Source: an uncultured Gemmatimonadales bacterium
Lineage (GTDB): Bacteria > Gemmatimonadota > Gemmatimonadetes > Gemmatimonadales > Gemmatimonadaceae
Direction: 5' to 3'
DNA: 64,000 nucleotides
Assembly: GCA_963701965.1 (NCBI GenBank)
Contig: OY969695.1
Coordinates: forward strand, 3,808,001-3,872,000
Part shown: positions 1 to 52,886 of the stretch, one piece after another
Position numbering within the stretch: the stretch's first letter is position 1
Layout: every line of letters starts with the position of its first letter
Made by a program: the position numbers and the translations under genes
The notes under the pieces: generated by a model
Told to the model about the DNA's origin: nothing
Databases searched by the model: none
What the model saw: the letters and a program-made list of their open reading frames with translations, nothing else

Positions 1-2260
1 ACCATCTCGTCGACCGGATTGGTGACTGGTGTGACGACGGGAACCGTGACCATCTCGGCGTCGAGCGGCGGACGGACCGGCACCGCGCAGGTGACGGTGT
101 CGCCCGTACCGGTCGCGTCGGTCGTCGTCACACCCGGCTCGGCAAACCTGAGCCTCGGACAGACGCTCCAGTTGACGGGCACCGTCGAAGACGCGGGGGG
201 GAATCCGTTGGGCGGCCAGACCATCGCGTGGAGCAGCAGTAACAGCAGCGTGCTGACGGTCTCTTCGAGCGGTCTCGTGACCGCCGTCGCCACCGGCGAC
301 GCGACGGTGTCGGCGACCACGAGCGGTAAGACGGGCAGTGCGTCGATCACGGTGATTCCGCCACCGGTCAGCAAGGTGATCGTGGCGCCCGCGACGGACA
401 CCTTGTCCGCGGGCCAGACCGTGCAGCTCACGGCGACGCCGAAAGACGGGAATAACAATCCGCTGGCCGGAGAACCTCCCGGCACGTGGACCAGCTCGAA
501 TACCAATGTGGCGACGGTGTCGTCCAGCGGGTTGGTCACCGCCGTGGCCACCGGATCGGCGACGATCACGGTCGAGGTCAATGGCAAGTTCGCGAACGCG
601 ACCGTCGTAGTGGCACCCATCGCGGTCGCGCAGGTCCTGGTCGCTCCGGCGACCGTGTCCGTCACCGCGGGGCAGACCGCGCAGTTGACGGCGACCGCGA
701 AGGACGCGGGCGGCAACGTGCTTTCCGGCCGGGCTGCGACGTGGAGCAGCGCGAACACGGGCGTGGCGACCATCTCGACCTCCGGGCTCGTTACGGGAGT
801 CGGCGCCGGTTCCGCCACGGTCACGGTGACGATCGGCGGAAAGAGCGCCAACGCCGCGATTACCGTCACGGCAGCAGCGCCCGTGGTGGGGACGGTGACG
901 GTCACGCCGGCATCATCCAGCCTCGCGGCCGGTCAGACCGCGCAGTTGACGGCGACCGACAAGACGTCGGGCGGCACCGTGGTCACCGGTCAAAGCGTGA
1001 CGTGGTCGTCGTCGAATACTGGAGTGGCGACGGTCGGCTCGAGTGGGCTCGTCACCGCGGTGAGCGCGGGCGCCGCGACGATCACGGCGACGAGCGCCGG
1101 GAAAACGGGCACGGCATCGATGACGGTGACGGCGTCGGGAGGAACGGTAGCGACGGTGACGGTCACGCCGGCGTCGTCCAGCCTCACGACCGGCAATCAG
1201 AATGCAGTTGACCGCCACCGACAAGACGTCGGGCGGGACCGTGGTGACCGGTCAATCCGTGACGTGGTCGTCGTCGAATCTCGCGGTGGCGACCGTCGCC
1301 CCGAATGGGATCGTGACCGCGCTGATCGCGGGCGGTGCGACGATCACGGCGACCAGCGCCGGGCATTCGGGCACGGCATCGATCACGGTGAACGCCGGCG
1401 CGGGAACGGGTCCGTTCCACGAACCCGCGGGCATGAACACGCAGATCAACACCGGCAACATGGCGACCGCGCCGGCGATTAGTTATCCGGCGAACACGTG
1501 GACCGAGGGTGGAACGACCTTCACGAACTATTCGCCGACGACGATGTCGGGCACCGGCGAATTCTCGGGCAACCTTTCGGCCGTGCCCGGCGGCACCGGC
1601 CTCCGCGTGACGTACAACAACACGCTGGCGGGCGGCAATAGTCCGGTGCGATTCGGCGCCAACATCGCCAACCACGGCACCGGCTATCTCTACATTCGTT
1701 GGAAGTTCCGTCTCTCGCCGAACTGGACGTTGAGCACGGCCTCCGGCCTCAAGATCATGGAGCCGCGCACCGTCAACTCGACCGAGAACCATGTGTTGGG
1801 CGCGGGAGCCGATGGGCAAGCGACGGACGGCAGCAACATGTGGTTTGGCGCGCTGCTGCAGTTCCAAACGCCGAGCGGGACGACCGGCATCAACATTCCC
1901 GGAAACTCGTCAGGCCAAGCGCCGGTCCCGTCGCAGGTCTTCACGTCGACGGTGGCCAATGTCGGTGGTGCCGCGCGCGGGGCGTGGCACACCATGGAAG
2001 CGTATTACCAGCCGGAGTCGCCCGCGGGGGCGGGGAACGGTCAGCTCACGTTGTGGGTCGACGGGACGCAGGTCTTTCAAACGGGATCTGGGGTCGCGGG
2101 CTCGCCTCCGGGCGGCACGCACTTCTTCCTGAGCGGCGAGTCGATGGGTTGGAACTTCTTGATGTTCGATCCGACGTACGGCGGCGATGCATCCAGCGAC
2201 CATCCGCCGTCGGCAGGGATCTACTGGGATATCGACGACTTGTACGTCAGTACGAAGTAG
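1..2260 (+). CDS. Big_2 (bacterial Ig-like) repeat protein with C-terminal beta-sandwich polysaccharide lyase/lectin-like domain; 5' truncated by window; apparent +1 frameshift at ~1201
   Basis: Frame is open from base 1. At least five V..V.V.P...QL.AT...W.SSN..VATV...GLVT repeats. ORF 19..1482 turns to nonsense after 1200 while ORF 1202..2260 continues the same Ig repeat; removing one A from CAGAATG (1198-1204) joins them. Confidence 0.85.
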
Positions 2261-2331
2261 CCGCAGGTCGGGGCGGCCCGGGTGATGCGCCTTCCGCTGG
2301 CGTGCGCCCGGGTCGTCGCCCATTCTTCGAT

Positions 2332-2922
2332 GTGACTGCGACCCATTCCTTCGTTCGCGTCGCACGTGAGCCTGGCCGTGCGTGGTCTGTTGGCCTCGCG
2401 ATCCTGCGAGGATGGTGGTACAAGGTGAGCTATCCCGCGCGGGGGATTCGCTTTTCCGCGGGCCGCGGGTTTCGCGTGCAAGGCCGGCTGATCGTGCGGG
2501 GACCGGGTCGCGTCCGATTTGGGGACGATGTGCGCGTCGGGATGACGGTGACGCCGTGGACGCACACGGCGGATGCCCTGATCGACGTGGGCCACGAGAC
2601 GTTCCTCAACGGCACGCGATTTGGCTGCGCGCGATCCATCAGCATTGGGCGCCGGTGCATCCTCGCCGACGTCTCGATCCTCGACACGAACTTCCATAGT
2701 ACGCGCGCCGACCGCCACGATCCCGCTGCGCCCGTCAAGGTGGCCGCAGTCGCGCTGGACGACAACGTGTGGGTCGCGTCGGGTGCGGGTCTGCTACCCG
2801 GTACGCGTATCGGTCGCAACTCCGTCGTCGGATTTGGCGCCGTGGTCTCCGGCGATTTCCCCGCGGACGTCATCATCGCGGGAAATCCCGCGGTGGTGGT
2901 CGGCCCCATCCCTCAACTTTGA
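2332..2922 (+). CDS. Hexapeptide-repeat (LbH) sugar O-acetyltransferase
   Basis: C-terminal part of ORF 1699..2922: IGRRCIL..V.ILD..FH, V.L.DNVWV...A.LLPG..IG.NSVVG.GAVV....P...IIAGNPA. GTG start at 2332 is inferred. Confidence 0.85.
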   Translation: MTATHSFVRVAREPGRAWSVGLAILRGWWYKVSYPARGIRFSAGRGFRVQGRLIVRGPGRVRFGDDVRVGMTVTPWTHTADALIDVGHETFLNGTRFGCARSISIGRRCILADVSILDTNFHSTRADRHDPAAPVKVAAVALDDNVWVASGAGLLPGTRIGRNSVVGFGAVVSGDFPADVIIAGNPAVVVGPIPQL

Positions 2923-3092
2923 GTGATGGCATGAATGCGCGCTCACGGAATTAATGCGCGATAACATGGTCAAGAAATAGGTACAAAAAAATTCGCGAAA
3001 AAGTTCCGCGATGGTCTTGCATCACATTTGGTCTGGCGTCATTGTACGTGCACAATAGCAGTCGCGCAGGCTGAGCAGTTTGCTTGGGCCCC

Positions 3093-3190
3093 GCGACAAA
3101 GGCAAACTCGCGGAAACGCGGGGACGCAAAGCTCTGGAGGCTACCGTAGCCGATCTCTGATCGGTTGCCACGCCAGTCCGGCTACCGAAC
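3093..3190 (+). ncRNA. c-di-GMP-I (GEMM) riboswitch
   Basis: AAAGGCAAAC-TCGCG-GAAA-CGCGG-GGACGCAAAGC-T...GGCTACCGAA matches the class I consensus: GGCAAAC, GNRA-capped P2, GACGCAAAGC and 3' RCTACCG. It ends about 20 nt before the ATG at 3212. Confidence 0.9.
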
Positions 3191-3211
3191 GGACACCTCA
3201 AGAGGTCAGCC

Positions 3212-4519
3212 ATGCGTCCCGTGTTCGCCCGGGGCCGCGCGAGCGCGCGGCATCACATCAAGCACGTCCCTATCACGCTACTCTCCCTAGCCGTCGCCGC
3301 CGCGCTCAGTGCTTGTGGCGACTCCGCTACCGCTCCCGCCTCCGCGTCGTCGGGCACATTGGCGATGGAGTCCGTCGCCTTTACCGTCGCCGGCGTCACG
3401 TACCCGACGGTCACGGTGCAGGGCCTTTCGGGGAATCTCGCCGTTGGCGGCCACGCCACCCTGACGGCCGCGCTGGCGACGCCAACCGCGAAGTGGCTCG
3501 GGGCGCAAGTGACCTGGAAGAGCTCCAACACCGGCGTCGTGTCGATCCAGACGCAGAACTGGGGCTCGGCCAAGGGTGACAACGCAGTCCTCACCGGTGT
3601 GGCCAACGGAACGGCCATCATCACCGGAACGACCCAGAGTGGCACGAGCGGGAGCATCACCGTCACGGTTGGAAGCGCCGGTACGGCGCCGGTCAGCAGT
3701 GGCGGGTTCCACGAACCGTCGGGCATGCACACCCAGATCAACACCGGGGCCATGACCACGGCACCGGCCACGAGCTACCCGGCCGACACGTGGACCGAGG
3801 GCGGCACCACGTTCACGAACTACTCGCCGACGTCGATGTCCAGCACGGGCGAGTGGTCGAAGAACCTCTCGGCGGTTCCGGGGGGCGGCGTGCGCGTCAC
3901 GTACAACCCCTCGCTCGCCGGCGGCAATAGCCCGGTGCGATTCGGCGCGACAATTCCCAGCACGGGCTCCGGGTATCTCTACGTGCGCTGGAAGTTCCGC
4001 CTGTCATCGAACTGGACCCTCAGCAACGCTTCCGGTCTCAAGGTGATGGAGCCGCGCACCGTGAACTCCTCGGAGAATCACGTGCTGGGCGTGGGCGCCG
4101 ATGGCCAGTCGACGAATGGCAGCAACATGTGGATCGGTGCGCTCCTGCAATTCGCGACCTCGAGCGGGACATCCGGGATCAACGTGCCCGGGAACTCCTC
4201 GGGACAGTCGCCGGTGCCGTCGCAGGTCTTCTCGTCGACCGTCGCCAATGTCGGTGGCGCGGCGCGCGGATCGTGGCACACGATGGAGGCGTCCTTCCAG
4301 CCTGAGTCCTCGGCGGGAACGAAGAACGCTGTCATCACGTTCTGGGTCGACGGCGTCCAAGTCAACCAGTCGGGCGGTCTGCACTTGTTCCTGAGCGGCG
4401 AGCGCATGGGGTGGAACTTCCTCATGTTCGACCCGACGTACGGTGGTGATGCCTCCAGCGATCACCCGCCCGCTTCGATCTACTGGGATATCGACCAGCT
4501 GTACGTCAGCACGAAGTAA
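3212..4519 (+). CDS. Lipoprotein with one Big_2 domain and a C-terminal domain paralogous to that of the 1..2260 protein
   Basis: AGAGG RBS; hydrophobic stretch ending in lipobox LSAC; WKSSNTGVVSI Ig motif; FHEP.GM.TQINTG...WDID.LYVSTK is shared with the upstream gene. Confidence 0.85.
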   Translation: MRPVFARGRASARHHIKHVPITLLSLAVAAALSACGDSATAPASASSGTLAMESVAFTVAGVTYPTVTVQGLSGNLAVGGHATLTAALATPTAKWLGAQVTWKSSNTGVVSIQTQNWGSAKGDNAVLTGVANGTAIITGTTQSGTSGSITVTVGSAGTAPVSSGGFHEPSGMHTQINTGAMTTAPATSYPADTWTEGGTTFTNYSPTSMSSTGEWSKNLSAVPGGGVRVTYNPSLAGGNSPVRFGATIPSTGSGYLYVRWKFRLSSNWTLSNASGLKVMEPRTVNSSENHVLGVGADGQSTNGSNMWIGALLQFATSSGTSGINVPGNSSGQSPVPSQVFSSTVANVGGAARGSWHTMEASFQPESSAGTKNAVITFWVDGVQVNQSGGLHLFLSGERMGWNFLMFDPTYGGDASSDHPPASIYWDIDQLYVSTK

Positions 4520-4540: not shown

Positions 4541-4578
4541 TTGACACGGCGGAGCCTACGTTCGTAGGCTTCGCCGTG
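4541..4578 (+). promoter_or_regulatory. Long inverted repeat overlapping a putative sigma70 promoter and the GTG start
   Basis: CACGGCGGAGCCTACG (4545-4560) / CGTAGGCTTCGCCGTG (4563-4578), one G-T mismatch. TTGACA at 4541 and TAGGCT at 4565. Confidence 0.55.
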
Positions 4579-34362: not shown

Positions 34363-34772
34363 GCGCCGTTATGTACGCACCTGCCGTGCTAACGCGCACC
34401 CGGGAAGCCCTAGGACCTATGTGCATGTGAGCGCATGAGTTGGCATCAGCGATGGAGTGTGCGCTGGCTCACAACGTGCCTGGACTGTGGGATTGCGGCT
34501 ACACAAATCCGGCGGCCCCTCCACAAGCCGTGGTTTCCGGGAAAATGCTACCGACCCGACGCGGCTTCGCCGTGTCGCGACACGGGAGGCGTGCCGCCGT
34601 TACATCGAACCTGTGGTATGCATGCGTCAGCCTGGTCAGAAGGCTGAGTGCGTCGTGGCGAGTTAACTCCCACAGGCAGGGCGAGTTACAAAAATTCCAG
34701 CGTACTGCACGGGACATGCATGGGGACACCGGCACCGTCAGGCATTTCCCCAAGATCCTTCAGTTGCGAGCC

Positions 34773-35723
34773 ATGGGCGCTACCGCCGTCAACAAACCAC
34801 ACTCCGAGCGCATGCGAGAGAGCGAACGTCCTGCGCGTCCGCCGTTGGTCCTGATCGCCAATGATCAGGAATGGTCCGCGCGATCGTTGGAAACGATCTT
34901 GGGACCGCGCGGCTATGGCGTCCTGCGCGCGTACAACGGGCGGCAGACGTTGGAGATGGCGCGCAGTGTCCAACCGGACGCGGTGATCCTCGATGTGCGT
35001 CTCCCCGACGCTGATGGGTTCGAGATCTGCCAGGCGTTGTACGCGGAGCACCATCTGGTGTCCGGCACGCCCGTGCTGATGACGACCTCCGACCCGGTGA
35101 ATCGGGCGCAGCAGCTGGCGGCGCTGCGCGTGGGGGCGTGGGACTTCATGATGCAGCCGCTCGACGGCGACATGTTGATGCTCAAGCTCGACACCTACGT
35201 GCGCTCGAAACGCGAGGCGGATGCCTTGCGGGAGGCCGGGCTGCTGGATCCGCCGACGGGCCTCTACAACTCGCGGGGTCTGGTGCGCCGGGCGCGCGAG
35301 ATCGGTGCCGAAGCGATGCGCCGGCGTCATCCGTTGGCGTGCATCGCATTCGCGCCGGAGACGACGACGGATGATGCCGGCGCCAGGATCGCCGAACATC
35401 TGGGCGAGATCCTGGGCCGCACCGCGCGCGTGTCCGATGCGATCGGCCGTCTGGGCCAGTCCGAGTTCGCGATCGTGGCGCCGGCGACCGAGTCGGCCGG
35501 CGCCGTGCGCCTCGCCGAACGCGTGCAACAAGTGGTCGCCGCCTCACCGCTGGAGCGCGTGCGCGCCGGCTACTGTGCGGTCGCGGATTTCGCCGCGTCC
35601 GCCGTCGATGCCGTCGAGATGCTGGTACGGGCGGCGTCGGCACTCCGCCAAGGCGCGGCCGCCGGTCAACCGTCGTCGGTCATTCAGGCGTTCGACGAGC
35701 CGCCGAGCCGCTTCGCGAGCTGA
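34773..35723 (+). CDS. Response regulator receiver + degenerate GGDEF domain
   Basis: VILDVRLPD.DGFE receiver; D..TGLYN.R; RVSD-AIGRL-GQSEF. Start at 34773 or 34812. Confidence 0.85.
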   Translation: MGATAVNKPHSERMRESERPARPPLVLIANDQEWSARSLETILGPRGYGVLRAYNGRQTLEMARSVQPDAVILDVRLPDADGFEICQALYAEHHLVSGTPVLMTTSDPVNRAQQLAALRVGAWDFMMQPLDGDMLMLKLDTYVRSKREADALREAGLLDPPTGLYNSRGLVRRAREIGAEAMRRRHPLACIAFAPETTTDDAGARIAEHLGEILGRTARVSDAIGRLGQSEFAIVAPATESAGAVRLAERVQQVVAASPLERVRAGYCAVADFAASAVDAVEMLVRAASALRQGAAAGQPSSVIQAFDEPPSRFAS

Positions 35724-52745: not shown

Positions 52746-52775
52746 AAAAAAGGCCGCAGGACGCGGGGGCTTTTT
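52746..52775 (-). terminator. Putative riboswitch expression platform: hairpin + U-tract
   Basis: Minus strand AAAAAG-CCC-CCGCG-tcc-TGCGG-C-CTTTTTT overlaps the aptamer 3' end; a second 8-bp stem (GCGCCGGG/CCCGGCGC) spans 52717-52745. Confidence 0.55.
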
Positions 52776-52821
52776 AGCGACTTGTTTAACGTGGCTGCAA
52801 TACGCCGTAACTCACCACGTG
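52770..52821 (-). ncRNA. SAM-II (SAM_alpha) riboswitch
   Basis: Minus strand ACGTGG-TGAGTTA-CGGC-GTATTGCAG-CCACGT-TAAACAA-GTCG-CTAAAAAG. P1 is ACGTGG/CCACGT; the pseudoknot pairs CGGC/GTCG; the TTGCAGCCACGTTAAACAAGTCGCTAAA consensus is present. Confidence 0.88.
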
Positions 52822-52886
52822 CGGACAATTGTGCAGCTAGTGTAATCACACCGGAGCACCGCGCGCAAGGGGTTAGCTTTCTCGAT

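Follow-up and report, generated by a model that had tools for sequence, protein, structure and literature searches.

A c-di-GMP-type riboswitch directly ahead of a lipoprotein gene inside an EPS locus of an uncultured Gemmatimonadales bacterium raises three linked questions, namely which ligand the element senses, in which direction it controls the gene, and what kind of protein is controlled. Gemmatimonadota are common in soil, and to our knowledge little regulatory biology is on record for the phylum. The original prediction, drawn from the letters of the window (the whole stretch of 64,000 nt analysed here), was that a consensus GEMM aptamer switches an Ig-domain, matrix-associated lipoprotein directly with c-di-GMP at the level of translation, separately from a long paralog upstream.

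Riboswitch identity and ligand

A cmscan check placed a full-length RF01051 (c-di-GMP-I) match, covering model positions 1-87, at 3091-3189 of the forward strand with 63.0 bits against a gathering cut-off of 35 bits (E 5.6e-10), which bore out the aptamer just before the ribosome-binding site; its originally given start at 3093 lies 2 nt inside the match, the position otherwise being right. This copy was assigned to RF01051; RF03167 (c-di-GMP-I-GGC) was the best model for two distinct related elements. The P1/P2/P3 junction was present, and the tetraloop receptor in P3 appeared as an internal loop at the expected place that was kept within the subtype while departing from the Rfam consensus. 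In the RF01051 alignment and the sequence, the binding residues fall at 3101 (G), 3128 (A) and 3185 (C), which we take to be G20, A47 and C92 in the Vc2 numbering. According to the available text of PMC6140456, G20 and C92 are the two bases that contact the ligand, and A20 is the mark of the c-AMP-GMP class.

All seven riboswitch copies in the source genome carried G20 and C92, with A20, the GEMM-Ib criterion, absent from every one. The genome held 13 GGDEF matches, seven of them intact and all seven with Asp at the specificity position, along with eight EAL matches over the cut-off. Neither a Hypr-type GGDEF pattern nor a SMODS cyclase was found in this genome (G000), which is 95% complete, and the Hypr pattern was also found in none of five genus relatives; Ser or Thr at the specificity position denotes Hypr enzymes in the accessible part of PMC6456294. 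On sequence criteria, the element is a real member of the c-di-GMP-I class in a host predicted to make and break c-di-GMP, and the combination of G20, Asp-type cyclases and no detected Hypr or SMODS enzyme makes c-di-GMP the likely ligand, in agreement with the earlier reading of position 20. It is highly improbable that the ligand is instead c-AMP-GMP or that the aptamer is bispecific, although G20 is described as a selectivity factor and not a hard filter in the portion of PMC9262584 available, the P3 receptor does not follow the Rfam consensus, and A20 versions with Hypr-like cyclases occur within the same order; set against these are the G20 of all seven own copies, the absence of both enzyme types from the 95%-complete genome, and the binding of c-GAMP by wild-type Vc2 (G20) at 10 uM versus picomolar for c-di-GMP (available text of PMC6140456).

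The proposed AGAGG ribosome-binding site was confirmed by its pairing with the genome's own 16S tail (Table 1). It lies 11 nt past the aptamer and ends 5 nt ahead of the ATG at 3212, leaving 22 nt from aptamer to ATG, and the terminator scan found no forward-strand terminator between the aptamer and the start codon. The lack of a terminator together with the closeness of the start supports translational control, as had been predicted. The promoter-like pair recurred in eight of 10 orthologs by pattern, 17 nt apart with varying sequence in between, and in the other two it fits by eye with a variant -35, while scoring under the threshold of a generic sigma-70 scan in the window. From this conserved pair ahead of it, the short gene is probably its own transcript, with a putative transcription start near 3052. 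An RNA-library contig spanned 3066-3294 with one mismatch, being a single low-depth contig and hence weak support. No sequencing run held half of the region; the runs X1 and X2 covered small shares of it (0.15 and 0.11) and consist of contigs, so that start site, strand, level and habitat are not readable from them.

Table 1. Positions of the riboswitch, leader and protein features; numbers without a prefix refer to the window
Feature	Position	Strand	Remarks
Promoter-like -35 (3017-3022) and -10 (3040-3045)	3017..3045	+	17-nt spacer; A-rich tract upstream
Anti-P1 strand	3061..3066	+	pairs with 3092-3097 (P1 5' strand) in the minimum-energy fold without ligand
Anti-start strand	3064..3074	+	pairs with 3206-3217 (SD end, spacer, AUG) in the ligand-bound fold
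c-di-GMP-I aptamer	3091..3192	+	RF01051; P1 = 3091-3095 with 3186-3192
Aptamer P2, GAAA (GNRA) loop	3113-3116	+	RF01051 alignment
Aptamer P3	3130-3183	+	
Shine-Dalgarno (SD) AGAGGU	3201..3206	+	complementary to the 16S 3' tail of this genome, -7.0 kcal/mol
Short paralog, predicted lipoprotein	3212..4519	+	435 aa; lipobox LSAC, Cys35 at 3314-3316
Divergent Ig-like beta-sandwich, residues 67-153	3410..3670	+	AlphaFold model
Beta-jelly-roll domain, residues 167-435	3710..4516	+	model pLDDT 94.9; polysaccharide-lyase-like
Long paralog, 3' part: Ig repeats and C-terminal domain shared with short paralog	1..2260	+	C-terminal domain 81% identical
Long paralog, start	G000:C1:3807206		behind its own riboswitch, G000:C1:3807089-3807188

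Predicted switching through the leader

In the folding model, P2 and P3 were held folded and the ligand-bound state was represented by an enforced P1. Under these constraints the ligand-free minimum-energy fold used the anti-P1 pairing and the P1-enforced fold used the anti-start pairing, the two being mutually exclusive and the second corresponding to a predicted helix that encloses the aptamer once P1 forms. Among 10 orthologs, the anti-P1 pairing was present in 60 of 60 alignment cells (two as G-U) and the anti-start helix in 96% of cells; four pairs of the latter varied on one side only and no two-sided compensatory change in it was found among the 10, its 3' strand being constrained regardless as SD and start codon. 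Alignment A2 omits the loci L147 and L148, which duplicate rows it already contains. This conservation bears on the possibility that the element regulates nothing and is a decayed or constitutive leftover from when the long paralog was duplicated; some ground for this is offered by the finding, in the accessible part of PMC6366702, that only 11 of 16 c-di-GMP riboswitches were functional in Clostridioides difficile. Such a leftover is very unlikely: in 10 orthologs, whose proteins go down to 38% identity, core, leader and promoter-like elements persist amid varying loops and spacer, and the leaders of short and long genes follow one logic despite having no sequence relationship.

Of 72 parameter settings applied to the window copy, 70 made the start region 1.1-8.8 kcal/mol more costly to open under the binding constraint and two changed nothing (0.0); none lowered the cost. 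The effect was also positive in nine of nine valid short-gene ortholog leaders with a short coding tail and in eight of nine with a long one, the short leader of L144 having been excluded from this set, and all eight long-gene leaders became harder to open by 4.4-7.0 kcal/mol. The penalty of the binding-competent fold was about 5 kcal/mol, which in the model would be small enough for the ligand to pay. When the window copy was folded without constraints (partition function), the sign reversed, with an opening cost of 10.5 free versus 5.0 bound, because P2 was dismantled and paired with the coding sequence; it was set aside for the model with P2 and P3 held but still weighed as evidence against repression, since the predicted direction depends on both helices being held folded. 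Two other candidate mechanisms were rejected, namely a local SD hairpin at 3192-3207, which lacked conservation in the orthologs and specificity across the family, and intrinsic termination, there being no terminator here and an aptamer-overlapping terminator in none of 80 elements of the window's subtype.

At the level of the order, c-di-GMP-I matches over the cut-off occurred in 44 of 61 genomes, counting in the source genome and the unpublished G012; the latter enters only tallies such as this one, and no claim depends on it. The 136 elements classified, which comprise the seven own copies and 129 of 136 hits in relatives that are kin and not independent, fell into 82 AG elements (G20, window-type P3), 17 AA elements (same P3, A20), two groups of 18 and 14 with another P3 type, and five unclassified; the seven remaining hits (three A20, four G20) were left out of the statistics. 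Leaders of AG elements paired with their own start region at -18.1 kcal/mol (n=78), versus -12.0 for upstream, -13.4 for shuffled and -15.1 for swapped controls, and no excess was found in the other three subtypes. The bound state was harder to open by more than 1 kcal/mol in 51 of the 78 and easier in one, versus harder in 0/12, 1/13 and 1/10 of the other subtypes. When reduced to 57 non-redundant AG elements from 26 genomes, own leaders gave 34 harder and one easier, versus 15 and seven with shuffled leaders, 12 and 16 with the leader removed, and 27 (by more than 1 kcal/mol) and 13 with unrelated far-upstream leaders. Ranked against swapped leaders, own leaders were in the best half for 40 of 57 and the best decile for 17 of 57 on the start region, and for 42 and 19 on the extension of P1, while the local 3' hairpin, tested with own versus swapped SD, reached 32 and 10, which was not significant. 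Bases exactly complementary to the 5' side of P1 occurred in 34/57 own leaders versus 15/57 controls. On this modelling, a 5' anti-SD platform appears to recur across Gemmatimonadales.

A conserved 12-mer was also found 10-21 nt before the aptamer in 33 of the 57 AG leaders (for example at L058, L062 and L116). As its 3' end is complementary to P1, it is read as the anti-P1 strand of the window. Its reading as a -10 box was rejected because the conserved -35/-10 pair in the window sits further upstream; the 5' part of the 12-mer could be promoter or RNA.

The targets of AG elements, 62 of 79 of which were scanned over their first 480 residues, included 28 Big_2 or Big-like proteins, seven with ricin lectin domains, three each with GH39, beta-helix and subtilase domains, and one each with an alginate lyase, PL14 or GH30 match. 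This dominance of Ig-repeat (28/62) and ricin-lectin (7/62) proteins, the position of the gene inside an EPS locus, the easier opening on binding in unconstrained folding, and the existence of adhesin ON switches (Vc1-gbpA and Bc2-cap, as far as the available sources describe them) would all suit a switch that turns translation of a matrix adhesin or lectin ON, in which the start region is trapped by coding sequence or the freed P1 3' strand and released on binding, so that the protein is made together with the EPS. Such a switch is nevertheless unlikely, since the 3' segment did no better with its own SD than with swapped ones (32/57, not significant) whereas the 5' leader did, and since, once P2 and P3 were held folded, only 1/78 elements became easier to open. 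About 0 effect was seen in five of the seven own-genome copies (genome median 0.1), and this lack of predicted change in start-site access, along with the control of RNA stability by Vc2 described in the accessible portion of bioRxiv 10.1101/617340, is compatible with c-di-GMP being bound but acting through RNA stability or Rho-dependent termination, any effect on translation being secondary and the leader helices giving static 5' protection. That route, too, is improbable: each leader specifically complements the SD and start codon of its own element, and AG elements have a median of only 23 nt between aptamer and start codon.

The reading preferred here is that c-di-GMP, once bound, probably, though by no means certainly, switches the lipoprotein OFF at the level of translation by way of a leader strand upstream of the aptamer. 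Starting from the aptamer with its G20, A47 and C92, the SD, the missing terminator, the seven copies and the Asp-type cyclases, all present in the genome, transcription from about 3052 would first yield the leader hairpin 3061-3066/3092-3097, which would block P1 and hide the anti-start strand, so that ribosomes could load. With c-di-GMP bound, P1 would be stabilised and 3064-3074 set free to pair with 3206-3217, in a helix that would surround the aptamer and cover the AUG. Counting against this reading are the reversed sign in unconstrained folding, the five own copies with no predicted effect, the gains seen with far-upstream leaders and the lack of two-sided compensatory changes among orthologs; in addition, p-values are overstated because the elements come from kin.

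The same aptamer class and binding residues are found in the Vc2-tfoY riboswitch of Vibrio cholerae, which in the available parts of bioRxiv 10.1101/617340 and PMC9262584 is a translational OFF switch where formation of P1 leads to masking of the RBS by an anti-RBS downstream. In comparison with that arrangement, as far as those sources describe it, the predicted anti-start strand of the window lies upstream of the aptamer, is first hidden in a hairpin that blocks P1 and would form an OFF helix around the whole aptamer, with the start codon only 22 nt away and the P3 receptor off consensus; an anti-RBS of the Vc2 type was not found downstream, there being 11 nt between aptamer and SD and no specific 3' pairing. 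Class I switches in C. difficile turn genes OFF by termination, including zmpI (PPEP-1), which encodes an adhesin-releasing protease (accessible part of PMC6366702). This parallels the window, on what is available of that source, in class I repression of a secreted anti-adherence enzyme at high c-di-GMP and in a multi-copy regulon, and differs from it in using transcription termination and a protease target instead of predicted translational control of a carbohydrate-active-like lipoprotein. The modelled element would share the direction of the Vc2 and C. difficile OFF switches in another architecture.

The lipoprotein, its long paralog and the EPS locus

The lipoprotein assignment was upheld by the lipobox rule, the LSAC lipobox with Cys35 having counterparts of the LSAC type in close homologs. 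The description as an Ig-domain protein held in part: one beta-sandwich was modelled and PF02368 was found in 21 of 40 homologs, but the protein's own copy matched no Pfam family at E<=0.01, and its larger part, residues 167-435, has a different fold. The best Foldseek matches for that part were PL36, PL14 and PL20 lyases (E 7e-9 to 6e-7, TM about 0.5) at 10-15% identity, with GH16 and lectin folds close behind in the ranking. No PL14 or PL36 family profile scored above the cut-off for the window protein, the long paralog scored 20.9 against PF14099 versus a cut-off of 29.9, and a PDB sequence/profile search gave nothing significant (best E 0.084). The family comprises at least 166 clusters at E<=0.001, and among 78 aligned members 13 matched PF14099 and 10 matched PF21294; K277 was conserved in 76 of these, Q313 in 74, E359 in 73 and N289 in 68, and the motif DPTYGG was also conserved.

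The PL36 enzyme Aly36B, PL14 enzymes (vAL-1, Aplysia) and PL20 glucuronan lyase share with this family the beta-jelly roll, and the near-invariant K277 aligns, by sequence alignment only, with the Lys of a PL14-like member. Catalytic residues of Aly36B are K143, R169 and Y185 in the available text of PMC8286568. The window protein differs from these lyases in its lipid anchor and Ig stalk, and the PL36 Arg and Tyr are apparently not conserved, appearing as Asn/His and Gln in the family alignment (again sequence alignment only). On the structural model, residues 167-435 are predicted to form something like a surface-tethered carbohydrate-active or carbohydrate-binding module, with cleavage and mere binding of polysaccharide at about even odds.

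The long-short pair, with a riboswitch before each gene, recurred in three relatives (G003, G004 and G005) and at the loci L144, L145 and L147. In the source genome, a second copy had been suggested as worth seeking before the long paralog and was found there, 17 nt before the gene. The short gene would therefore be switched separately in cis only, by its own promoter-like pair and aptamer, and not in its signal, since the long paralog carries its own riboswitch with the same predicted direction and both genes would answer to the same ligand. Orthologs of the long paralog were intact at 917-931 aa, and an RNA contig was identical to the window over 1126-1266 except for one letter missing at 1201, which makes an error of assembly the probable cause of the frame break near 1201. 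Frame breaks also occurred at G000:C1:3273686 onward, in a peroxidase-like gene, and at G000:C1:2811141-2811630, in a GGDEF-EAL gene; the three suggest scattered indel errors in the single-contig assembly. A hexapeptide acetyltransferase gene lies between the paralogs in the window (2330-2922, forward strand, start uncertain), after the short gene in G003, G004, G005 and L145, and after the long gene at L153, where there is no short gene.

The targets of the seven copies included the long paralog, the window gene, a receiver protein and a 247-aa protein of no assigned family. Two riboswitch-led lipoproteins had weak XynC (GH30-like) matches below the cut-off, and a frame-broken one, in our reading of its sequence, appears to resemble di-haem peroxidases. 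At L007 (G000:C1:2081766-2083610), a GGDEF-EAL gene runs divergently from a neighbouring riboswitch of the seven, whose target is GH30-like. A receiver and GGDEF domain pair was also found behind a riboswitch in G016 (L044).

A Wzx/Wzy-type gene set was found around the lipoprotein gene, as predicted for an EPS locus. It contains genes for a Wzx-like flippase, a Wzy/O-antigen-ligase-like protein, GT2/GT4 glycosyltransferases and deacetylases, with a nucleotide-sugar dehydrogenase and priming-transferase-like, Wza-like and Wzc-like genes downstream and an XrtA/PEP-CTERM-type deacetylase and FemAB genes upstream. The dehydrogenase makes a uronic-acid polymer a plausible substrate. With OFF predicted for both leaders, both paralogs would be expressed at low c-di-GMP and silenced in the biofilm state, the surface-anchored, lyase-like protein being predicted to act on the polysaccharide of its own locus; the least certain step is whether its jelly-roll domain cleaves, as opposed to only binds, that polysaccharide. 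The earlier label of the protein as matrix-associated gives way here, since the predicted OFF direction and the lyase-like main domain point to a matrix-processing or non-biofilm-state protein and not to an induced matrix component.

Several further observations were made in the window. At 34440-35723 (forward strand), inside the EPS locus, lies a gene for a protein with a receiver and a degenerate GGDEF domain, which may serve as a c-di-GMP receptor. The start codon of the GT4 gene is overlapped, at 4545-4578, by a strong 34-nt inverted repeat that lacks a U-tract and has one weak look-alike elsewhere in the genome. On the reverse strand, 52753-52828 matched SAM_alpha, a riboswitch family described from alpha-proteobacteria, at 45.9 bits versus a cut-off of 36; the gene behind it resembles threonine synthases in our reading and is followed by one for a ThiS-family domain, whose neighbour is presumably MoeB/ThiF-like.

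A possible second signal in related families and the meaning of the platform

The AA elements, which carry A20, had a U-tract in 12 of 17 cases, and an exact terminator strand overlapping the aptamer 3' end was found in 7/17 of them versus 0/80 AG elements; such an overlap implies switching of the ON type. Seven of eight AA targets scanned were Big_2 proteins. Ser-type GGDEF proteins were found in exactly those five of 12 genomes of the sister family f2 that carry AA elements (L159 in G039, L160 in G041, L161 in G037, L162 in G057 and L163 in G059), and this co-occurrence resembles the Geobacter system of GEMM-Ib riboswitches with the Hypr GGDEF enzyme GacA. The window copy shares with the latter its RNA fold and a regulon of surface proteins, and differs in its G20, its lack of a terminator and the absence of any Hypr enzyme found in its genome. 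The link between enzyme and AA element was not exclusive, as three genomes of family f1 had AA elements with no Hypr pattern match, six of family f3 had a Ser-type enzyme with no riboswitch match, and several genomes had the other A20 subtype without the enzyme. In these five f2 genomes, A20 terminator-type riboswitches precede Ig-repeat lipoproteins, some of them in tandem arrays (G039). A near-identical A20 element with the other P3 type was also seen at L122, L125, L126, L132 and L134, in five f2 genomes without the Hypr pattern, and the Ser-type GGDEF proteins of family f3, in six of its 12 genomes, are at further loci (L168-L173).

A candidate c-AMP-GMP system in Gemmatimonadales is suggested by these sequences, and two signals acting oppositely on one class of protein would fit the OFF reading, though only indirectly. 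Taken jointly, and only tentatively since the whole is rather doubtful, the results may describe riboswitches that answer to two signals and form one network over surface lipoproteins with an Ig stalk and a carbohydrate-active tip, in which c-di-GMP would silence the class by a wrap-around platform (a 5' anti-SD strand enclosing the aptamer), Hypr-made c-AMP-GMP would switch the same class ON via terminators in the sister family, and the window gene would found a lyase-like family that remodels or releases its own EPS as c-di-GMP falls.

In the open-access literature, no relevant paper was found tying Gemmatimonadota to c-di-GMP, riboswitches or cGAMP, though supplements may list Rfam hits, and nothing was found in open-access full texts on an upstream anti-SD platform in c-di-GMP riboswitches; the expression platform and regulon appear to be lineage-specific, with no description found. 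For the genus, the analysis would name a regulon, with five to seven member genes in each genome, whose direction of control can be tested. The platform would be a compact one for class I, with about 165 nt from transcription start to AUG and its anti-SD, unlike that of Vc2, upstream of the aptamer, and it could serve as a sensor part. Beyond the genus, the survey leads to a candidate c-AMP-GMP system, for which no description was found in this phylum, and to a lyase-like family that is uncharacterised and comprises at least 166 clusters.
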